The notes: generated by a model from the sequence alone, not told the origin. A DNA stretch of 18,346 nucleotides from a virus (IMGVR_UViG_2531839178_000019:1-18346), one strand, 5' to 3'; counted from the stretch's first letter, positions 1 through 18,346 are shown. Made by a program: numbers and translations.

Positions 1-378
1 TTACTCAACGTCAAACGCCCGAATTGAAGCCAAATCATCCAGACCGCTCAGCTCCTCTTTCATTTCACGCTGACGGCGATAAATCTCGTCATTGCGCTCA
101 ACCTGTGCCTGAGCCATTGCTGCCGCCAGTTCTTCCAGTTCCGGCATCGACAGTTTCACCTGCTGATTATCCGCATCACTCCACACCATATGTGTTTGTG
201 CCGCGACAGATTTTGCCAGCATGACCACCGGGGACAGGCGGCCCAGTGAGTCGGGGCCAGCATTCCAGATACGACCGTTCCATTCAAACGTGAACGGCTT
301 CGCCTCCTGTTCTGTGCGCCATGCTTCAATTTCCTGACGCCTGGCCTCTCTGGCCGCTTCCAGCATTTCTGGTGTCAC
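1..378 (-). CDS. Putative tail fiber assembly (chaperone)-like protein, C-terminal reading frame; the probable N-terminal segment lies upstream (about 503-563) in another frame
   Basis: ORF ends with TAA at 1-3. It sits directly downstream of the side tail fiber gene, where tfa lies in lambda. No Shine-Dalgarno precedes the in-frame GTG (376-378) or ATG (364-366), whereas the neighbouring frame has GAGGAA-N6-GTG at 561-563. The two frames meet at a 7-nt homopolymer at 496-502. Confidence 0.45.
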   Translation of the reverse strand: MTPEMLEAAREARRQEIEAWRTEQEAKPFTFEWNGRIWNAGPDSLGRLSPVVMLAKSVAAQTHMVWSDADNQQVKLSMPELEELAAAMAQAQVERNDEIYRRQREMKEELSGLDDLASIRAFDVE

Positions 379-573
379 AGTGAATGGGGCTATCTCACCC
401 CATTTGCCGCTTTGCAGTTCCTGCCAGATTTGCTGCCCCGTCGGAGCGACATCATCAGCGGTGGCTGTGTAGGGGACTGCCTGGTCCCTGTCGTCAAAAA
501 AACGTCACAGTCTACTGCGCCACTTTCGGTATAACGGGGATTAATGATTTTTTTAATTTCCACGGTGCATTCC

Positions 574-1989
574 TCACGATGTGCGAATAAAAAGCCCGGG
601 CATTGCGCCAGAGACATGTGCATCCGGCACCCCGGACAGGGCGCAATATGACCCCGGTAATGAATGCTCTGAACATCCCGTAATGAAAAATTGTGGGGAT
701 GCTATATACGTTCCGGTGGGAGTACTGGGCACTGAAATCCCCACCGGTCCCAGTCGTGAGCCTCTGTATGACTGCCCCCTGACAAGTCTGATGACTTTAT
801 CACCGTCAGCTTCTCCCTGGTACGCAGCAATAATCAGCCCGCCAATGTCAGGGTCTCCCCATCTGTTGCGGACAGAGCTCGCCACGATTCTGTAAATAAT
901 ATCTTCTGTGGTTATATTTATTTTCACCCAGCCAGTCAGTCTGGATATGGGCCAGTAGCAGTAGCGGGTGTGATAAATGGGGCCGTTAATGCCGTAAAAA
1001 GTAAGGGATTTGGCTCTGTACCTCGGTTCTGTTGTCTCAGGGCGTGCATCAGTCCACCGGATGCTGAGCACCCCTTCAAACCGTGTGTCGGGTATGATGA
1101 TGTCGTAGGGGCCAGCAACGGAATATTCACCTGGCAGCGCATTCCTTACCCAGGCCAGGAAATCACTCTTAGTGTCAAAACGGATAACATCTTCAGGCAG
1201 AAAAGCACGCCCAAAGCCGAATGCGCCGGGTATCGCCAGACGGCCTTTTGTCCGGTCGTAAATGTCGCTCTGTGCTTCCATCGTGGCCGCACTTTTCAGC
1301 CCCAGATTATCCCGGGACTTCTGTTGTGCCTTTTCGCCTGCTGCTGCGATTTCTGACAGATGGTTAGCCATTTTCAGAGTGCCGGTCAGCGCAGCATCAA
1401 TGTCATTTTTGGCCTGTTCTGCTGCGCGGGCATAACCTGCGGCATCCTGTGCGCTCTGTCCGGCTGCGGCTGCATTTGCTCCTGTGCTTGTCACATCTTC
1501 CGCAGTGGCCTTTCTGTCCTCAGCTGTGACGGTTGCATCCTGTCGGGCTTTCTCCGCAAAACGTTGTGCATCATCACGGGCCGTTGCGGCTGCCGCCACA
1601 TCCTGCGCCGTCTGCTGTGCGTTTCCGGCTGCAGCCCCGGCACTCTGCTGCGCCTGCGCCACCATTTCCTCAAAGCGCTTCATCACCTCCGGACGTAAAT
1701 CACCATCCTTTGGTGCATTCAGAAACGCGTTCAGTGTCCCCGGTGCATCAGTCGGTGCCACATCAATATCCCCGACACGGGTTGGCTGCCAGCCGTTACA
1801 GTGAAGCGCAACCTCGTAATACCCCGGCTCAGCCTCAATCACATAAGCACCGTTATTGTCCGTCACGCAAGTGGCAACAACGTGTGCCACAACGGTCGGA
1901 CTGGTTCTTCTGGCCCGCAGTTCAATCGCACAATTTACGACAGGTTTACCCGCCCCATCTTTCAGTACACCTGAAATCTTTACTGCCAT
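574..1989 (-). CDS. Side tail fiber protein (Stf-like): conserved N-terminal domain, Ala/Gln-rich coiled-coil stalk, divergent C-terminal globular domain
   Basis: 471-aa ORF starting at ATG 1987-1989 (MAVKISGVLKDG...), preceded by GGGGTGA. The first ~100 aa match the N-terminal domain recalled for lambdoid Stf/StfR proteins. The track ORF start at 2031 is an upstream in-frame extension without an RBS. Confidence 0.8.
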   Translation of the reverse strand: MAVKISGVLKDGAGKPVVNCAIELRARRTSPTVVAHVVATCVTDNNGAYVIEAEPGYYEVALHCNGWQPTRVGDIDVAPTDAPGTLNAFLNAPKDGDLRPEVMKRFEEMVAQAQQSAGAAAGNAQQTAQDVAAAATARDDAQRFAEKARQDATVTAEDRKATAEDVTSTGANAAAAGQSAQDAAGYARAAEQAKNDIDAALTGTLKMANHLSEIAAAGEKAQQKSRDNLGLKSAATMEAQSDIYDRTKGRLAIPGAFGFGRAFLPEDVIRFDTKSDFLAWVRNALPGEYSVAGPYDIIIPDTRFEGVLSIRWTDARPETTEPRYRAKSLTFYGINGPIYHTRYCYWPISRLTGWVKINITTEDIIYRIVASSVRNRWGDPDIGGLIIAAYQGEADGDKVIRLVRGQSYRGSRLGPVGISVPSTPTGTYIASPQFFITGCSEHSLPGSYCALSGVPDAHVSGAMPGLFIRTS

Positions 1990-2719: not shown

Positions 2720-5700
2720 TCAGCTAATCGTGATGCCTGCAGTGGCTTTCTTCATCACAACAACCAGCAAATCGCTGATACTTGCTGTGGGATACCAGCC
2801 ATTTACCAGCCATGCCGATACAGAAAACTCCAGCGTCATGTGACCGTGACCGGCAGGCATATCAATAACACCCGTATATATCAGCGTATTATCCAGGGTC
2901 GTTCGGTTATAAATTTCGGCACCGTTTTTCTTCACTATCAGGCGGCATGACGAATAAATATTGTTATTCTTCCGCTCATGTTTAGCACCGCGAAACGCCA
3001 CCGCGGGAATAACAATTTGCCGATCAAACGGCTGATCGTCATAAACCCTGACGGTAATGGTCCCTGATGGCCACCTCTCCGGTGCCCGGGAGTCCCGTGG
3101 GAAAGGTTTGCCCACTGTTTTAACGAGATCGCCTTCAATCTGGTTCGCGGACAATTTTCCCAGAACCCGACAGTTCTTATTAATCGTGACGTTGTTGAGC
3201 GTCCCGGAGTTCGCGTTCACGTTACCGCTGATATCGGCATTTTTCGCCGTCAGCCGTCCGCCAGGTGTCAGGGAAAATGCCGGAGGATTACCGCCGCTGG
3301 TAATGGTCGGAGCCGTCAGGCGTTTCAGGAACACGTCGTTCATGAATATCTGATCGCCCTGACCAACAAACATCGGCTTTGTGTTGCCATTCGCAGGATT
3401 AATCATCGCAATCCTGTCTGCCGCCAGCAGCACCTGACTCTGCATTCCTGCTGGCGTATTCTCAATACCGGCACCGATACCCGCAATATAAAGGCGTCCG
3501 TCCTTCATCTGTTGCAGCTTCACAGCCCACATGCTGTTCAGGTTATTATTTGTATCAACCTGAACTTTCTGTATCTGCTGGATTGCAGCACTCTGATTTT
3601 CCAGTTTTTTATTGACGGTTTGCGTGATTTCATTGCTGACATTCGTAATGGACGTCCTGATTTCAGTCAGGTCCGGCGCAAGCTGACCGTTATCAATCTG
3701 CGTCCACAACTCCTTGCCGAGATGCGTTTTATTGATCAACCCTTTATAAAAACTCAGATAACCTTCCGCATCATCGCTCGCCCGACCGACGGCCTCCACA
3801 AATGCCGATTTGCCAACGGTGTTCACACTGCGAACGTAAAAATAATAATCATGGCCCGGCCTGATATTGATACTGGCGGCTATCCAGTACAGCGCCGTGC
3901 CAAGATAGCGGGCGCTGGTTTCAACCTGCCTGATATCCGAAATCCGCTTTTCCGAAAACCAGAACTCAAACTGCACCGTCGGGTCATATACAGCCAGTTT
4001 CGGGACCGCCGTTATCTGAAAATACCCCGGTATCAGTTCAATAGTGACAGGCGCTGCCGGTGCCGCAATCCGGAACGATACCGACGCCGGATCGCCCTGC
4101 TGCCCCCGGGCATTTACCGCCCGGACTGTCAGACTGTAATTCCCCAGCGCCAGCTGCCTGAAGCGGTATGTGGTTTCCGTCGTCCTGGCTGTGCTGACCA
4201 GCCGCTCACTGCCGTCGTCCGCTGCCACGGTCAGGCGAAGCAGGAAGCTCACACCCTTCACCACCTTCGGCGTGTCCCATCGCGCCAGCACCTGATATTC
4301 CCCGCTGTCTGCGGTGACTTCGGCGGTCAGATGCTGCACCGCTGGCGGCGTGACACCATTCACCGTGCCGCGCCGGTCACCGTCAAAGTGTGCCCCGTTA
4401 TCCACGATGGCCTCTTTTTCCGGCACATGCTGCACGGCGGTGATGGCATACGTGCCGTCGTCGTTCTCACGGATACTCACGCAGCGGAACAGGCGCTGGC
4501 GCAGCGTCGGCAGCTTCAGCCCCCACACGCTGTATTCTGCAACGCCGTCAGGAACCCGGCTCACTTTCACCTTCACGCCGTCGGTGACGGACTGAACCTC
4601 CACGCTGACCGGATTGCCATTTCCGTCAACCAGGCTTATCAGCGTGGTACCGGAGGACGGCAGCGTGATTTCACGGTCGAGCGTCAGCGTCCGGGTCTGG
4701 CTGTTCACCGCCAGTACGCGACCACCAGTGCTGATACCGGCATAATCATCATCGCAGATTTCAATGACATCACCCGGTACATGGCGAAGCCCTTCTGCGC
4801 CCACGCTGAAGTCCACGGTCTGCGTTTCCAGCAGTTCCGTTTTAATCAGCCACAGCCCGGCGCGGTGCGCCTGTCCCCGGCTGGTACAGCCAAAGGCATC
4901 CATCTTCGTGACGTTACGACCGTAACGGACAATGGCCTGCGTGTCCTCCACAAGCTCTGTCGCCGTCTCATGACCGTTGTCCGGATCAATCCAGTTCACC
5001 TCAACGACATTATGGCGGTCCTTCAGGGCGCTGAAGCTGTAGCGGAACGGCGCGCCATCATCCGGCATCACCACATTACTGCGGTTATAGGTCCACACTT
5101 TATCCGACGGTCGGTCCTGCACGAACGTCAGCGTCTGCCCGTTCCATACCGGCATACAGCGCATCGCCGAGCAGAAATCACTGAGAACATCCCACGCCTT
5201 ACGCTGTGTGGTCAGGTAAGCGTTACAGGTGATGCGCGGCTCCGTGCCGCCAAATCCGTCCGGCACTGACTGGTCGCAGTACTGGCCGATGACATACAGC
5301 GCCCATTTGTCCACATCTGCCGCACCAAGACGTTTCCCCATGCCGTAGCGCGGATGAGTGAGCATGTCCCACAGACACCAGGCCATGTTGTTGCTGTATG
5401 CTGGCTTAAGCGTTCCGTCCCAGATACCGCTGTATTGCCGCGTCTGCGGGTTATAGTTCGACGGCACCTGCAGAATGCGCCCGCGAAGATGATAATTGCG
5501 ACTCACCTGCTGGTTACCGAACTGCTCTGAATCCACCTGCACGCCGACCAGCGCCGTGTTCGGGTAGCACTGTTTCACATCGATGATTTCGGTGTACGAC
5601 GACCAGAGCGTTTTGTTCTGCAGCTGGTCTGTGGTGCTGTCCGGTGTCATCCTGCGCATCCGGATATTAAACGGGCGCGGCGGCAGGTTACCCACCACCA

Positions 5701-8245: not shown

Positions 8246-8574
8246 CAGTTCACCACCTGTTCAAAATCGGCCGTTACAGTCACCCATAACGCCCCCACGC
8301 TTGCCGACCATTTACGACAAACCACCCTGATCAGTTTCCAGTCATAAGGTGGCGTCCACTGAAATGCGCGGACGCCACCGTGCCGTTCCAGAAAGGCTTT
8401 TAAAGATGGGTGTTCACCTTTACGAACACGTATCGTCACGCTGTAAGTCGACAACTGGTTATTCAGTCCCGCCGCACGACGCTGTTCATAACCATCGCCC
8501 AGCTTCACTGTCACCACTTTCGGCTCTGATACCACATTCATATCCGGGCGCACTTTCCAGTGAAACGTCTCCAT
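8245..8574 (-). CDS. M: Minor tail protein M
   Basis: 109-aa ORF matching lambda M in length and sequence (…GDGY.QR…FEQVVN). Its ATG shares one base with the H stop codon (TAATG). Confidence 0.95.
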   Translation of the reverse strand: METFHWKVRPDMNVVSEPKVVTVKLGDGYEQRRAAGLNNQLSTYSVTIRVRKGEHPSLKAFLERHGGVRAFQWTPPYDWKLIRVVCRKWSASVGALWVTVTADFEQVVN

Positions 8575-11500
8575 TACCGGTATGCTCCACTTAACCGGCC
8601 ACCATCACGGGCCTGCTGTTGCATAAAGTCCGCGGCCGCTTTTTTCCCGAGGTCATAAACCACCTTCAGGGCAGCCGGACCTATCTGCCCGTTCGTGCCG
8701 TCGTTATTGATCTCAATGTTGTACTGCGGGGCAAACATCACCATGCCTGAACCACCAGTATCCGCCACAACCCCCAGCTTACCATCAGCACCGCGACGCA
8801 GTGGCAGAATGGCTTCAGGTCCCGCTTCCCCCATCACACCCGCGCCTTTTGCAAAAGCAAAAAACGTCGGACGGTTAACCACCGTGCCACTGTAGCGACT
8901 CAAATCAGCAGACTGGTAAACACCGCCATCAGCATTAGTCGTGAAGCCGAATAAAGAACCGACGCCCTTTACCGCCTGCATCATGGCCATCTGTGCCATA
9001 ATTCTGGCCATATCTGACAACAGGGAAGAGGTGAAGGATTTAAAATTCAGCTTACCGGTGGTACAGAATGTCGCCAGTGCATTACCGGCACTGCTGAATG
9101 CCACTGTAAACATCTGTTCTGCCGTTCCCGCCGCATTATCCGCATCCGCCGTAAAATTCTGAAACGCCCGCATGGCACCGTTTTTCCAGTCGCCCTGCGC
9201 CACTTCCAGTTCCTGCCAGTAGCGTTTGTTTTCATTCAGTTGTCGCTTCAGGCTCCCCTTCAGCACCTCCTCAGCCCTCCGGTAGTCCTCCGTCCCGTAA
9301 GTGCCTTTCTGGCGACTGTCATTCTCAAGCTGTTGCAACTGTTGCCGGTATTCCTGCCGGATGCGCAACTGTGCCTGGTAGCGCTGCCGCTGCTTATCCC
9401 CCATACCTGCAGTGGCAATATCCAGATTGTGCTGCTCACGCAGTGCACGTTCTTTGTCTGCCAGCTGGCTGGTCAGCTGAACCGTTTTTTTCTCAGGTCG
9501 TTAAGCGCTGTCTGTTTCTGCAGCTCCTGCTGTTTCACATCCAGCAGCGTCAGCGCCTGAATCAGCTCATTCTTACGGGCCAGCACACTCTTTTCATCTG
9601 CCGTCAGCTTTTTCCCGTCCAGGTCGCTGATGCGCTGCTGCAGGGCCAGAAGCTGTTTATGCGCTTCAGTCATCCTTTCAGTGGCAATGCCTGCTGACTG
9701 TCTGGCAGCAGCAATCTGCCCTTCCACCTGTGCCTGCTGCTGACTGTACTGCAGCAATAACCGGGTGGCCTCATCATTACGGGTTGCCCGTGTATTTTTC
9801 TTAATGGCTTTTTCGTAACGTTCATTTTCACGCTGTATCGCCGCATCCCTGACAGCCTGGTCGGCGTACTGCATGGCATTAATACGCGCAATTTCCCGCT
9901 GATGTCGTGCAGCTTCCGTTTCATTCATCCGGTTCAGCGCGGCATTTTCAGCATTCCGGCGTTTCTGTTGCTCCTGGTAATTCCGTTCTGCCTGCGCTTT
10001 TGCATCCTGCAAATCCTTCCGGCGTTTTTTCTCCTGAAGATCGTTAAGACGCTGCTGATCGTACTCCACCTGTGTGGAGGCGTTTGTCCACGGATATTTT
10101 TTCGCGCGCTGAATTTTTTCCTGTAACGCATCAATCTGCGCATCCAGCGAGTCTTCACGACCAATATTCATGGCCGCATCCCAGAACTGCTTCCACCAGT
10201 CAGACAAGGTTTGCAGCGTACTACCCAGCGCATTGAGATTATTATCAATATCAGATGTGCGTTTACCGGTTTCCTCTGCCAGCGCAGACATGGCGATCCG
10301 GGCCGCATCACTGGACCGCCCCTGCTCCCCAAGGACGCGTATCTGCTCAAGCTGAGTGGCAGTCAAAAAATGCAGCGCATTGTCCAGCGCCTTCGCGGCA
10401 TTTACAGGATCATCCTTCAGCCGCTTAAACTGATTTATGGTATCGCTGACCGACTGGCCAACCGATCGCTCCATCTGTGCGGCAGCTTTCGCCACCATAC
10501 CAATATCGTTTCCATGAAATGCCCCACTGCCCACCACCTGTGCCAGCGCACCGGCTGCCGCATGTTGCGTGATACCATTCCCGGATATGGCCCGGCTGAG
10601 TTTCCACAACTGCCCGACAGTGACACCGGCATAATGTCCCGTCAGCGCCAGCTGACGGTTAAATTCCTCGCCCTCCTTCCGGCCGTCATGCCAGGCTTTA
10701 CCCAGACCCAGGACCGCCGCGACAAGTCCGCCAATAACGCCGCCAGTCATCATGCCTTTCGGCGACATCAGTGCGCCTGTCCATCCGGCACGGTTAGCCA
10801 GCGTTATCCCGGATCCCCTCAGCGCACCAAAATTGCCGCGCGCCATCTGACTGATTAACACCCCCAGCTCCCGCCGGGCTGCCGCACTTTTCAGCCCCAG
10901 CGAATGTGTGGCTTTTCCTGCCCGCTCCATTTTGCGGATATACACTTCTGCAGCACTGCTTACCCCCAGCTGAGCCGCCCTGGCGCGAAGCAACTCAGAA
11001 GACGACAGATTCTGGCGGGTTGCCTGCTCTTTAAGCTGGCGGATAAACGCCGCTTTCTGCCGGGTGGCCTGTTCCTCTGCCTGCGTCAGGGCACGGGTTT
11101 TCGCCGTGATCTCCGAAATCAGCGCCAGATAATCCTGCTGACCAACCCCGCCACTGTTTCTGGCCTGTCGGATCTGCTGCTGAATACGCTGTAATTCCTG
11201 AAGCCCCGCACCGGCCTGTTTCACACTGTCAATCTGGCGATAAAAGGCGGCAGCCGCTTTATCCTGCGCCTCCGCCAGTGCCCTGGCCTGCGCCTGTTCC
11301 TCGCGCATTTTCTGATTCAGGGCATCCACGCGCAGACGGGTTTGTTCCACCTCACGGGCCATGCGTTCATGAGCCCGTGCATTCTTCTCCACCGTCTGCG
11401 CATGGGCTGATGCTGCTGTTGCAGCCGAAGAAGCCGCCTGCATTGTCTGCCGGGCCGCCTGAGTCTGACGCTCCATAAAACGCTGCATACGGGCAGAAGA

Positions 11501-11614
11501 CCGTTCTGCATCGCTGGCTGCACCATTCAGAAGGTTTTTGATACGGGGAATTTCATTTTTAAACTCTGCCGCATCAATCCCCAAATCAATGACCAGGTTG
11601 GCTATCTGGTCCAT
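8574..11614 (-). pseudogene. H: Tail tape measure protein H, reading frame interrupted at an A7 tract (coding strand; plus-strand T7 at 9485-9491)
   Basis: N-terminal ORF from ATG 11612-11614 (MDQIANLVIDLGIDAAEF..., RBS GGAGGTG) stops at 9473-9475. The C-terminal 276-aa ORF (8574-9404) ends ...NNDGTNGQIGPAALKVVYD..., matching the lambda H C-terminus as recalled, and its frame is open upstream back to 9500. The two frames meet exactly at the A7 run. Confidence 0.85.
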
Positions 11615-11915
11615 AACGCACACCTCCGGAAATACCTTCCCCAAGATGCATCAGTTCTTCGTCCGTTCGCTCCGGTATCCCGTTCTCTTCCGGTAAAAGG
11701 CTGAAATCAGCCACCGCAGCATCGCTGCTGCCGGACACCATTCTCACGATCAATGCCTTCAGCGAGGCAAACTGCGCATCCATCCACACATCACTGAAGC
11801 TCTGCATCCGGAAATAATCGCCCCACTCACCAAGCTCAGTGGCCGACATATCCGACAGCATCCGCCGCCAGTCTGCCCGCCGGAACTCCCGGGCAAGCCG
11901 CATGACAAACTGCAT
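11586..11915 (-). CDS. T: Tail assembly protein T, the -1 frame extension expressed as the G-T fusion
   Basis: 109-aa ORF in the -1 frame relative to G; its frame is open upstream to 11948 and overlaps the G 3' end. G-T-H gene order as in lambda. Confidence 0.8.
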   Translation of the reverse strand: MQFVMRLAREFRRADWRRMLSDMSATELGEWGDYFRMQSFSDVWMDAQFASLKALIVRMVSGSSDAAVADFSLLPEENGIPERTDEELMHLGEGISGGVRYGPDSQPGH

Positions 11916-11923
11916 TTCCCGCG

Positions 11924-12310
11924 TCAGGACTTTTCCGGCGTCAGCGCCTCATGATCATCATCCCCGGCATTCTCAATGGTCCCCATACCGCTCAGCGACA
12001 GAACCCTCTCCGCCCCCGCGCCCAGCGCATCATACGACCATGTTGTCATAATGGATGCGCAAAGCGTCTCAACATCCTGAGACTGCTCAGCATTCCACAG
12101 TGAGCGGGAAACCAGCCAGGCATTGATATCCATTCCCATACGCAGAAAAGCAATCTGTCGTTCAGCCTCCGGCAGTTCTCCCTCCTGTGCATCAAACTTT
12201 GCCGTTCGCTGCTGAACAAACGTCAGATATTCAATTCTCTGCAGCCCGGACAGCTCACTGAGCACCACGGACTGTTTTTCATAATTAAACGTATCCTGTT
12301 TCAGAAACAT
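11924..12310 (-). CDS. G: Tail assembly chaperone G
   Basis: Start taken at ATG 12308-12310 (MFLKQDTF...SELSGLQRIEYL), resembling the lambda G N-terminus (MFLK...SELSALQRIEHL) as recalled. GGAG lies 6 nt upstream. Confidence 0.85.
   Translation of the reverse strand: MFLKQDTFNYEKQSVVLSELSGLQRIEYLTFVQQRTAKFDAQEGELPEAERQIAFLRMGMDINAWLVSRSLWNAEQSQDVETLCASIMTTWSYDALGAGAERVLSLSGMGTIENAGDDDHEALTPEKS
11930..11936 (-). other. Putative -1 ribosomal frameshift site for the G-T fusion (coding strand G_GAA_AAG)
   Basis: This is the only slippage-prone sequence inside the 33-nt G/T frame overlap (11916-11948). The lambda site recalled is G_GGA_AAG. Confidence 0.5.
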
Positions 12311-12325
12311 CATGTTCTCCGGATG

Positions 12326-12349
12326 CAAAAAGCCCCGGATAACCGGGGC
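12326..12349 (-). terminator. Rho-independent terminator/attenuator between V and G (minus-strand RNA GCCCCGG-UUAU-CCGGGGC followed by UUUUU)
   Basis: Perfect 7-bp GC-rich inverted repeat (12332-12338 / 12343-12349) with an A-run at 12327-12331 on the plus strand. Confidence 0.65.
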
Positions 12350-12368: not shown

Positions 12369-13052
12369 TTATGGTGCGCTGACGGTCACCGCAGCCACTG
12401 CCACAAACTCTCCGTCAGAGGTCATGCCCACGATGCTGACACTGCCCTGCTTCACGCCTTTCACCGTGGCCACAAGCCCGCTCAGGGTCACCGAAGCAGT
12501 CTGAGGATCTGACGAATGCACACTGATCGCTTTGACACTGACAGATGCCGGTGCCACCGTCAGTCCGGTAACACCCACGGTTTCAGCGCCCTCCTCTGCC
12601 AGATACGGACGCCCCACACCGCTGATTTTTACAGTACGGGTCATCACCTCTTTTGAGGTAATGGTTTTACCCAGAGAACTCAGCCAGCCACGGAAAACAT
12701 CAACCGTACCGTTGGGGTATTTGATACGAAACGCGCAGACTTCACCGGAATCGAACAACTGAACCAGTTTTTTCTGCCCGCTGTCACCCGGACGCCAGGC
12801 CAGCGTCGCCAAAGTATCACCGACGGATTTCTGCCCCTGGGTTGTCGTTTTCCAGTCTGCATCTTCATCATCGAGATAAGTGTCATCTTCTGCATCAGCG
12901 GTCATTTCGCCAGGTTGCAGATCCTTCACCATCGCAAGACGCAGCCAGTCAGTGTCCGACAAAGGGTTCGCAAACGCATCGCCCTTGCCGGTGTACATCC
13001 AGAACGTCGTTCCCGCACCTTTCGTTTTTGCCAGTGGATTTGGTGTGGTCAT
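12369..13052 (-). CDS. V: Major tail protein V
   Basis: Start taken at ATG 13050-13052 (MTTPNPLAKTKGAGTTFWMYTGKGDAFANPLSDTDW...), homologous to lambda V as recalled. Strong RBS AAGGAGGT 6 nt upstream. The track start at 13127 is an upstream extension overlapping U. Confidence 0.92.
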   Translation of the reverse strand: MTTPNPLAKTKGAGTTFWMYTGKGDAFANPLSDTDWLRLAMVKDLQPGEMTADAEDDTYLDDEDADWKTTTQGQKSVGDTLATLAWRPGDSGQKKLVQLFDSGEVCAFRIKYPNGTVDVFRGWLSSLGKTITSKEVMTRTVKISGVGRPYLAEEGAETVGVTGLTVAPASVSVKAISVHSSDPQTASVTLSGLVATVKGVKQGSVSIVGMTSDGEFVAVAAVTVSAP

Positions 13053-14734: not shown

Positions 14735-16535
14735 TTACGCCGTACATTTCACCAGGCCGCGGTGATCAACTGGCGCAACACCGGCGTCAATACGCACTTT
14801 CGTTGTCACGCCATCCACACTGAAGCCCTCCATCTGATCAATATATGGCGTATCCACACCGTTGAGATAAGCCACTTCAATCGTATCGGAGCCTTTGGAC
14901 GCAGCCAGGTAGAAGGTGGTCTGGCTGTTATCATCAAGACGAGGCTCTGCAATAACGGTCGCAAAATCTTTCACCGGGTTAATAATACCGGCGTTAATGT
15001 CAGCCCCCTTGACACTTGAGGAGCGAATGACCTGGTTAGCAACAGACTCCATCGCCGTCGGTACCAGTACGAACGCAGGACGAATATTCAGATGACGCTC
15101 CCCCTCTTTCTGAACACGCATCAACTGGCGGGCTTTATCCAGCGATGCCACGTCCATTGCAGCGCTCTCCAGTACGTTTGCATGTTTCGCTTTATCGAAC
15201 AGACTTACATTATCTGTGGAGATTTTCGGGTTAGACGTCAGAATGGCATAAACCAGATCGGCAATAGTGGATTTCGCCGCACGGCCCAGTTTCATCGGGA
15301 CATCGGTCAGCATATTCAGATCATCGTTGATAATGGCCTGACGGGTGATACTGAACAGTTCACCATAGGTCGCCAGTGCAATCGTGGCCTGTTTATCTCC
15401 GGTAGTAACGTATTTATATTCCGCCCCTTCACGCACCTGACGCAGAGCACTGAAGCCCCCCATACCCACACGATGGGCAATTTTAAAATCAGACAGCTGA
15501 CCTTTCCGCGTCCACTGTTCATAGGTTTCAGGGGCATCTTCCCAGCCCTGCAGAATGGCTTTGTTCGCAACATCCAGCAGAATATTACCGAAGTCAGACG
15601 TACTGTGTGTGAACGCCGCACCGACCATCTGCATCGGGTTATAACCGGAAACCCCAATACCCCGTTCAGTCAGTGACATACGGGCATATTCACGCAGGGT
15701 CATCCCGTTGTAGACATTATCACGTTCAGTTTTTTCAAACCCGGCACGCGCCATCAGCGCCTGGCGGATCCCGTCCCCCACAAAATTACCGTTTCCGGCA
15801 TAAATATGGGCCGGGGTATTTTTATTTGATGGTGAAAATTCCTTACCCATTTCGTTAAGTAATTTCTCACGGGCCTGCTCAAGCGAGCACTCCGGCTCGG
15901 AAAGACAACTGGCCTGCAATGTCTGATAACGCCCGCCAAACATACCAAACAGTTCATTAATACCACTCACACGTGCTTTTTGCTCTGCCAGTACCTGCGC
16001 ACGGATACTGCTTTCATCTGCGGAAGGTGCATTTGTGGTGGTCACGGTTGTGGCAACCTGAGCCGTAGTCTGCTCCTGTGTCTGAGATGCAGTATTTTTG
16101 TTTTCAGGTTCACGCGTTGCACTGTTGCGTGGCGGAGTAATCATGTTTCGAATGGATTCCGGCATCTTTTTAAATTCCTCTGTACGTTTTGACTGAATAC
16201 ATGCCATTGCCTTAACGGCTGGCGTCACCTGATCAGCAAATCCATGTGCCAGACATTCGGCACCGGACATCCAGGTCTCATCCGCCAGCATGGCAGCAAC
16301 TTCATCGGTGGTTTTCCCGGTTTTCTGTGCATAAGCGGGTAACAGAACCGCCTCAACTTTATCGAGCAGGTCGGCATAGGTGCGCATGTCCTCCGCATCA
16401 CCGCCCGTAAAGCCAAATGGTTTATGAATCATCATGAAGGTGTTTTCCGGCATAATGACCGGGTTTCCCACCATCGCAATGACCGACGCCATTGATGCCG
16501 CCACACCGTCAACATAAACGGTAATGGACGCACCA
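14735..16535 (-). CDS. Prohead protease (ClpP/S49-like, C-terminal part) - scaffold linker - major capsid protein fusion; 5' end truncated by IS600
   Basis: Long ORF with the peptidase motif ...VYVDGVAASMASVIAMVG... near its 5' end, a Thr/Gln-rich linker and a capsid-like C-terminal domain. The reading frame runs upstream into the IS600 terminal sequence, so the track start at 16561 is a GTG inside the IS. Confidence 0.6.
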
Positions 16536-16862
16536 TGAGGTAGCCTGAGTTTAACGGACACTCCTTCCTGAAATAGAATGGCATCAGAAGGAGCTAATAA
16601 TGAGCAGAAAAACCCAACGTTACTCTAAAGAGTTCAAAGCCGAAGCTGTCAGAACGGTTCTTGAAAATCAACTTTCGATCAGTGAAGGCGCTTCCCGATT
16701 ATCCCTTCCTGAAGGCACTTTAGGACAATGGGTTGCCGCCGCCAGAAAAGGGCTCGGTACTCCTGGTTCCCGCACGGTGGCTGAACTGGAATCTGAAATT
16801 CTGCAACTGCGTAAGGCGTTAAATGAAGCTCGCCTTGAGCGAGATATATTAAAAAAAGCAAC
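16536..16862 (+). mobile_element. IS600-like (IS3 family) element, left ~327 bp only, interrupted by IS30
   Basis: Begins TGAGGTAGCCTGAG... about 64 bp before the orfA ATG (16600-16602), a layout typical of IS3-family left ends. The orfA product MSRKTQRYSKEFKAEAVRTVLENQLSISEGASRLSLPEGTLGQWV... matches IS600 OrfA as recalled. The left boundary is approximate. Confidence 0.7.
16600..16862 (+). pseudogene. IS600 orfA, 5' fragment (first ~88 codons), truncated by the IS30 insertion
   Basis: The helix-turn-helix OrfA sequence stops making sense after ...LERDILKKAT at the IS30 terminus (16863); the track ORF to 16950 reads through into the IS30 inverted repeat. Confidence 0.8.
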
Positions 16863-18083
16863 TGTAGATTCAATCTGTCAATGCAACACCCCTTTCAATT
16901 ATCTCTTTCGGTGTTTTGAACTTCAGTGTCTTTCTCGGTCTGTTGTTTAGCTGAGCAGCAACCAGATCTAGTTCATGTTGAGTATATTGGGCAAGACATG
17001 TCTTTTTAGGAAAGTACTGCCGAATTAGCCCATTTGTGTTCTCATTTGTTCCCCGCTGCCAAGGACTCTGAGGATCGCAGAAGTAAACTTTAACGCCGGT
17101 GCTGACAGTAAATTCTAGATGTCTGGCCAGTTCCATTCCTCTGTCCCATGTCAGCGATTTTCTGAGTTCTGACGGTAAACTCAGGAATTTGTCGGTAAGA
17201 GCCTGATTTACTGAGACAGTAATCTTTGCCCCTGAGTCTAAGGATGATCGTATAACGTGATTTTCGGTCTACAAGTGTGGCTATATGAGAGTTTTTGTAC
17301 CTGAGACTAAATCGCCCTCCCAATGCCCCAGAGAGCGTCTGTTATCGATATTTCGGGAACGTTCGTGAATTGGTGTTCCGTTCACTATGTTAATCGTACC
17401 TCTTTCGCCTTTGCGGGTATGACGCCTGCCATGGCGAAGGCTATGCGACCGTCGCAGATGCTGTATATTCAGGTGGTGTAGCGCTTCACGGCTACGAAAG
17501 TACAGCGTTTTATAAATTGTCTCAGGTGATATTCGCAGCGTTTTTTGACGTGGTTTTGTTCGCCTTAACCATCCTGATATTTGCTCTGGAGACCATTTCA
17601 TCTCCAGCTTTTCCAGAACAAGCTTTCGCAATGGTAAATTTTGATCCAGTAAGCACGGTTTTGGCCTTTTCGCCATTCTGTTGGCTCGGTTATTAGCATC
17701 AACAGCTTTGTAATAGCGTCTGCCCCGATTACGCTGAACTTCACGTGAGATCGTCGAAGGACTGCGATTCAGCGCAGTAGCTATCGCACGAATGCTCATT
17801 TTGGCTGACAAACCAGCTCGTATCTCCTCGCGCTCAGACAGTGTCAGGTGAGCTACAGCCCGCTTACGCTCATGGGGTTTTATGCCGCCAGTATCCCTTA
17901 ACATAGTGAAGATCGTTCCGGGTTTTGAACCCAGGATATTCGCTATTTCACTGAAGCCTGTTCCGTTCTTCCATAGTTCAAAAACAGAGGCTTTTTCCTC
18001 TGCTGTAAATGTTCGTCTCATTCAAAAAACCTCCGCGACCCCATGTTTTCACATAACTGTTGCGTTGACCAATTGAATCTACA
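16863..18083 (-). mobile_element. IS30, complete length (1221 bp) with imperfect ~25-bp terminal inverted repeats
   Basis: Termini TGTAGATTCAATCTGTCAATGCAAC (16863-16887) and reverse complement of 18059-18083, TGTAGATTCAATTGGTCAACGCAAC. Encodes an IS30-family DDE transposase on the minus strand. Confidence 0.9.
16870..18021 (-). pseudogene. insI: IS30 transposase, split into three ORFs by two compensating 1-bp indels
   Basis: ORFs 17281-18021 (MRRTFTAEEKASVFELWKNGTGF..., HTH), 17090-17323 (...NSHIATLVDRKSRYTIILRLRGKD...) and 16870-17136 (MELARHLEF...DPQSPWQRGTNENTNGLIRQYFPK...) together read as one IS30 transposase as recalled. Frame changes occur near the T5 run at 17292-17296 and near 17220. 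Confidence 0.8.
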
Positions 18084-18346
18084 GTTGCTTTTTTAATATA
18101 TCTCGCTCAAGGCGAGCTTCATTTAACGCCTTACGCAGTTGCAGAATTTCAGATTCCAGTTCAGCCACCGTGCGGGAGCCAGGGGTACCGAGCCCTTTTT
18201 CTGGCGGCGGTAACCCATTGTCCTAAAGTGCCTTCAGGAAGGGATAATCGGGAAGCGCCTTCACTGATCGAAAGTTGATTTTCAAGAACCGTTCTGACAG
18301 CTTCGGCTTTGAACTCTTTAGAGTAACGTTGGGTTTTTCTGCTCAT
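18084..18346 (-). mobile_element. Second IS600-like fragment (orfA 5' part) in inverted orientation, continuing beyond the window; orfA frameshifted
   Basis: Reverse complement of 18084-18346 is identical to 16600-16862 except for 3 substitutions and one extra A (A5 versus A4), which shifts the orfA frame after ...WVTAARK. The orfA ATG is at 18344-18346. Confidence 0.8.

Follow-up and report, generated by a model that had tools for sequence, protein, structure and literature searches.

The window analysed here (the whole stretch of DNA, 18,346 nt) carries a tail tape measure gene, H, which is interrupted at a run of seven A residues. The split most likely does not exist in the genome itself; at best it makes H an ordinary frameshift pseudogene. 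The window is identical (100% over all 18,346 nt) to contig AKNA01000051.1 of the Shigella boydii 965-58 draft (GCA_000268145.1), and its A7 run is probably a homopolymer undercall of the pyrosequencing type that is not present in the DNA of the bacterium; we infer the platform, and hence the artefact itself. In such a case, an A8 run in H of S. boydii 965-58 would have been read as A7 in the draft assembly, the true gene would encode one continuous lambdoid tape measure protein of 1013 aa, the commonest Shigella allele, and full-length H would need no frameshifting. The host element is a lambdoid prophage that carries ipaH and is defective in another respect, with its capsid gene truncated by an IS and with portal and terminase removed.

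H is a lambdoid tape measure gene split at a run of seven A

H is preceded by the G/T chaperone genes and followed by the tail tip genes M-L-K-I-J, as in annotated relatives, and the gene order in the window is Z-U-V-G-T-H-M-L-K-I-J-lom-tail fibre. Pfam matches above the gathering score were obtained with TMP_2 (160 bits) and TMP_4 (61.5 bits) for the N-terminal fragment and with Tape_meas_lam_C (88.9 bits) for the C-terminal one. Judged by these domains and by its position, H is the tape measure gene of a lambdoid tail module of the mEp460/cdtI type. It shares the domain set and the gene order of this type but, in the deposited sequence, lacks one base and so has a split ORF; over the whole gene, the DNA of phages mEp460, cdtI, Ayreon and Tritos is 88% identical to window H. 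The original prediction had compared the gene with lambda H. The assignment as a tape measure gene stands, but the DNA kinship to lambda is distant: the megablast match extends over 61 nt only, lambda H (853 aa in the J02459 annotation) is shorter than H of the window type, and the related phages are instead those of the mEp460/cdtI type.

Both frames of H are on the minus strand. The N-terminal frame (9473..11614, 713 aa, containing TMP_2 and TMP_4) runs from an ATG at 11614 to a TGA at 9475-9473 and ends LNDLRKKRFS*. The C-terminal frame (8574..9500, 308 open codons, containing Tape_meas_lam_C) lies at -1 relative to the first, begins RPEKKTVQLTSQLADKERALREQHNLDIATAGMGDK and has its stop at 8574; it is bounded by a TAA at 9503-9501 and open from 9500, and its first ORF starting with ATG spans 9404..8574 (276 aa). 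The overlap between the two frames is only 28 nt, and the sole homopolymer within it is the A7 run (plus-strand T7) at 9485..9491, where sequence reading and comparison with relatives place their meeting point. On the coding strand the break reads CTG AGA AAA AAA CGG, the flanks of the run being ...GCGCTTAACGACCTGAG AAAAAAA CGGTTCAGCTGACC... or, quoted to a second extent, ...CAGACAGCGCTTAACGACCTGAG-AAAAAAA-CGGTTCAGCTGACCAGCC.... The single H frame is thus split at 9485-9491 in the deposited sequence, and insertion of one A at the run yields a continuous ORF of exactly 1013 aa, where about 1013 aa had been proposed. The coordinates, the A7 run, both frames and the stop positions given in the original prediction all proved exact on re-translation.

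Almost all relatives carry one more A at the break

The repaired 1013-aa protein shows zero differences from the allele annotated 'MULTISPECIES Shigella' (P0004 in our index), which is found in 117 contigs. Among complete E. coli genomes, the ten closest (99.3-99.8% identity) have one extra base at the site, which reads GAG-A8-CGG; A8 was read directly in four of them and deduced in the others from 602 record bases per 601 query bases. The RefSeq annotation gives a 1013-aa tape measure protein in E. coli relatives with an otherwise intact gene. In the more distant LF82 prophage, mEp460 and E7-1N7, the site is spelled AAG AAA AAA ACx, with equal total length and one frame. A pattern scan of IMG/VR, GTDB representative genomes and metagenomes, which accepted A7 to A10 equally, returned A8 in 28/31 matches and A7 in 3/31. 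The window is therefore one base short of almost every relative examined, the exceptions being the A7 assemblies. When about 40 related loci were aligned, the sole gap in this region of H was found inside the A run, which argues that the position of the break is no chance coincidence. A 47-nt megablast query, in which every 28-mer seed crosses the A7, gave no match in 5,426 E. coli genomes, probably because the low-complexity filter masks the run; the run-length evidence was carried instead by longer queries and by the exact pattern scans.

Apart from the heptamer, the two-frame layout lacks the features of programmed recoding

In the upstream frame the codons at the break are AGA|AAA|AAA|CGG, so that, formally, the run forms a -1 slippery heptamer, A_AAA_AAA, in the correct register, exactly as originally noticed. 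A ribosomal -1 slip on this heptamer, or polymerase stutter, would produce both a 713-aa and a 1013-aa protein. Precedents are at hand: in Shigella, mxiE and some of the spa/mxi genes use transcriptional slippage at A/T runs, and IS1 frameshifts at A_AAA_AAC. We nevertheless consider programmed recoding of H so improbable that it can practically be set aside, and it was rejected for want of conservation and of a stimulatory structure. The two-frame layout is not conserved, as the functional phages mEp460, cdtI and Ayreon and nearly all prophage copies have a single ORF; a single frame was found in 28/31 unbiased matches and in all E. coli and phage relatives examined. These continuous relatives spell the site AGA AAA AAA ACG or AAG AAA AAA ACx. 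The RNA located 3' of the run folds like shuffled sequence (z = -1.04 over 60 nt and +0.04 over 100 nt), and it contains no stimulatory structure beyond chance, only a 6-bp CAGCUG hairpin that is no better than those of shuffled sequence. The ~15 nt preceding the run showed no Shine-Dalgarno-like element. Efficient transcriptional slippage of the mxiE or Thermus dnaX type is known from A or T runs of ~9 or more, and A7 is below this length. The A9 alleles described below would moreover need the opposite shift, and the prophage makes no heads anyway.

A useful comparison is offered by the G/GT tail chaperone -1 frameshift, which belongs to the same operon, lies directly upstream of H and also has its second frame at -1. 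In the window, G (12328..11924) and T (11915..11586), both on the minus strand, overlap at -1, the T frame being open from 11948, 22 nt ahead of the G stop. All relatives retain this G/T arrangement, whereas the H split is not conserved. The likely slip region of G/T, CCGGAAAAGTCC, contains no exact X_XXY_YYZ heptamer.

One-base contractions in the S. boydii 965-58 sequence

An exact-protein look-up with the 713-aa fragment retrieved two contigs only, AKNA01000051.1 and one from the Logan assembly of run SRR059778; the 965-58 haplotype with A7 was found in no other assembly by this look-up. The nearest relative, PSSP01000001.1 (GCA_002968135.1), has this prophage too, its capsid gene likewise cut to 608 aa by an IS. 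At the run it has A8, with 0 substitutions over the 8,365 nt of prophage compared, and A8 is the sole difference. Over a longer stretch of 11.5 kb, PSSP01000001.1 and 965-58 differ by 17 mismatches, most of which fall in a single cluster within the 3' half of a DUF4376 gene, and by 3 indels, each of which is a -1 homopolymer contraction in 965-58 (A8>A7 in H, T8>T7 in DUF4376 and G5>G4 in an intergenic region beyond the window, at L139 ~10322 of AKNA01000051.1). The 3/3 indels thus all have the same direction, and from G to L there is none besides the A run.

The second of these contractions breaks another gene in the same manner. The DUF4376 gene (1..623, minus strand), located downstream of the tail fibre gene and identified from its ORFs and Pfam, encodes 207 aa in relatives. 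In the window it is split into fragments at 623..390 (77 aa) and 378..1 (125 aa), the latter called 366..1 (121 aa) in the assembly itself, and comparison with relatives places the break at 496..502, where the coding strand has T7 instead of T8. The T7 version is present on two 965-58 contigs, the second being AKNA01000047.1, and is absent from every other assembly in the exact-protein index.

In IMG/VR, the 7-calls cluster by assembly. For H they were found in 3/7 assemblies with early taxon numbers and in 0/~20 late ones (Fisher p ~0.01), and for DUF4376 in 9/21 early and 0/42 late ones (Fisher p ~1e-5). Early means IMG taxon numbers up to 2537561618, plus 640427142, the taxon number serving as a presumed proxy for the sequencing era; the contig of 965-58 itself is not in IMG/VR. 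The two runs are concordant within assemblies, being (7,7) in four, all-8 in many and mixed in one. Both are 7 in 965-58, 2526164619 and 2526164651, which have three different H haplotypes, so that the 7-calls track the assembly block and not the lineage. Further one-base indels in H are found in other early-numbered assemblies (~8 in locus L036 and several each in L039, L040 and L046). Some T7 alleles may be real, since 640427142, which has a T7 call and a very early taxon number, is suspected to be a Sanger-era genome.

This pattern resembles the undercalls of the early pyrosequencing era: the indels sit in the longest homopolymers, are always -1, and recur at the same sites in several early IMG assemblies and in none later. 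The resemblance is incomplete, as 965-58 is otherwise clean, other early-numbered assemblies read A8 correctly and pyrosequencing is a presumed platform. Three observations count against an artefact. The Logan assembly of SRR059778 is 100% identical to the window over 13,378 nt (13.4 kb), A7 run included. The 965-58 sequence is clean relative to its relatives outside the three homopolymer sites and is not a generally poor assembly. Finally, probably real A7 and A9 alleles occur elsewhere, as detailed below. The agreement between the Logan and deposited assemblies excludes a pure assembler error and leaves room for a bias in the reads, as both probably derive from the same reads. A literature search on 965-58, on strains taken to belong to the same sequencing project and on the platform (SRR059778) returned nothing usable.

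An A7 run in the rsmF-yebT intergenic region, which is A7 in 965-58 and A8 in O121, was considered as a fourth undercall and rejected, A7 being the majority form among 60 widely sampled E. coli genomes. Those genomes of O157:H7 and O121 that were sampled have A8 at this run (L054 12007 / L055 2599), which is apparently a natural polymorphism.

The alternative to an undercall is that A8 was really shortened to A7 by a very recent replication-slippage deletion, H having become a pseudogene in an unselected prophage remnant in the course of usual Shigella prophage decay. We regard this as a minority possibility, though one of some weight. The prophage is already dead, its ClpP-capsid fusion lacking 75 codons and abutting IS elements, without portal or terminase. 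Two assemblers agree on A7. In E. coli relatives, H has been inactivated independently: RMDEC465 carries a nonsense codon (CAG>TAG) 27 nt ahead of the run, and O121 strain 201805972 a 46-nt deletion, with the gene annotated as frameshifted (loci L002 ~3280 and L003 ~3045-3064). Like the prophage remnants in which Shigella pseudogenes accumulate, the window prophage has ipaH, many IS and a truncation. A genuine deletion would nevertheless mean that a single strain had lost a base independently several times (in H, in DUF4376 of both prophage copies and in the G5 run), set against 0 substitutions over 8.4 kb from the nearest relative, no other assembly carries this haplotype together with A7, and the double contraction recurs on different haplotypes in two other early-numbered assemblies and in no later one. 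Unlike in fixed frameshift pseudogenes, the evidence in 965-58 points toward an artefact. Undercalling explains these data in one step, whereas real mutation would require repeated, paired, same-direction events across unrelated haplotypes of early assemblies. The original prediction had ranked a sequencing error or an inactivating mutation as likeliest and programmed slippage as least likely; the A8 of the relatives, the unconserved two-frame layout and the defective prophage bear out this ranking, and between its two leading options the sequencing error is, in our judgement, the likelier for this assembly.

Length variation of the run in other lineages

A look-up with the 276-aa C-terminal ORF revealed further assemblies in which H is broken. 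A7 occurs on a S. flexneri haplotype in ERR1541657 (a contig common to at least 20 samples), in ERR5908489 and in UEKU01 (NCBI), and the protein of this haplotype (P0031) is present in 21 contigs, named S. flexneri 2a and K-404. A9 is found in four assemblies, namely CP026788, CP026793, CP026871 and one Logan run. A locus with A7 (L011) and one with A9 (L010) show 0 substitutions over 4.8 kb, and overall A7, A8 and A9 occur on haplotypes 0-4 substitutions apart, although some of the A7 calls are probably artefacts. Taking the ERR runs, from accession type and date, to be Illumina data, A7 in the S. flexneri 2a lineage (at least 20 ENA runs) and A9 elsewhere are probably real variation. These alleles suggest that the A tract is a real mutational hot spot, and they count in favour of a genuine slippage event in 965-58 too. 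The presence of A7 on at least four haplotypes was also considered as proof of recurrent real mutation; this argument was dropped, as most such assemblies are early and error-prone. Among the loci from S. flexneri and related assemblies (L010-L019), L012 and L018 also lack 295 nt from within H (window 10984-11279).

A more elaborate scenario would make the A8 tract of ipaH-carrying prophages a hypermutable A7/A8/A9 switch that flips in Shigella populations and turns tail production on or off, with a possible partial rescue of A9 by transcriptional slippage, and the A7 of the window a real 'off' state. We hold this to be very improbable.

Consequences for annotation

The biological weight of the break in H is small. 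If the A7 is an artefact, EIQ30579.1 (713 aa) and the separate C-terminal call belong together as a single, ordinary tape measure gene, and the DUF4376 gene at 1-623 needs equal repair. If it is real, H is a further frameshift pseudogene, located in the remnant of a prophage already inactivated by an IS. Homopolymer instability in decaying prophages is illustrated, in a minor way, by the A7/A8/A9 variation in S. flexneri. For genome scans of early-era drafts, the lesson is to compare any frame break at a homopolymer of 7 or 8 bases with near-identical genomes before recoding is proposed.

Prophage context

Upstream of the tail module, comparison with relatives identified a fusion of a ClpP-like prohead protease with the major capsid protein (14735..16567, minus strand) that lacks its first 75 codons. 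This fusion is the truncation point of the prophage, beyond which the portal and terminase genes are absent. With a truncated capsid gene and neither portal nor terminase, the prophage is nonfunctional whichever reading of H holds. Otherwise all tail genes, Z through tail fibre, are intact, apart from a 19-aa in-frame deletion in the tail tube gene V (12369-13052, minus strand), which encodes 227 aa compared with 246 aa in the other form. The deleted form of V, which has no Big_2 domain match, is widespread (157 index blocks) and co-occurs with intact H.

Beyond the capsid gene, Pfam and ORF analyses identified IS30-family transposase ORFs on the minus strand (16870..18021), at 17281-18021 (246 aa) and 16870-17136 (88 aa), and an IS3-family orfA (HTH_Tnp_1) on the plus strand at 16600-16950. 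The same split of the IS30-family transposase into 246 and 88 aa recurs across 361 index blocks from numerous unrelated genomes of E. coli and Shigella (loci L057-L066), and this recurrence indicates a fixed feature of the IS copy family and no local error. The IS30-family ORFs are flanked by two mutually inverted copies (18058-18346 and 16536-16888; ~97% identical, 290-350 nt), which are probably parts of a second IS.

Just past window position 1, the prophage carries ipaH (L053 10545-12296), which encodes a 583-aa effector with LRR_TTSS and NEL E3 ligase domains. This cargo gene is located directly downstream of the tail fibre and DUF4376 genes. In the second prophage copy (L054), ipaH is split into ORFs of 422 aa and 138 aa.
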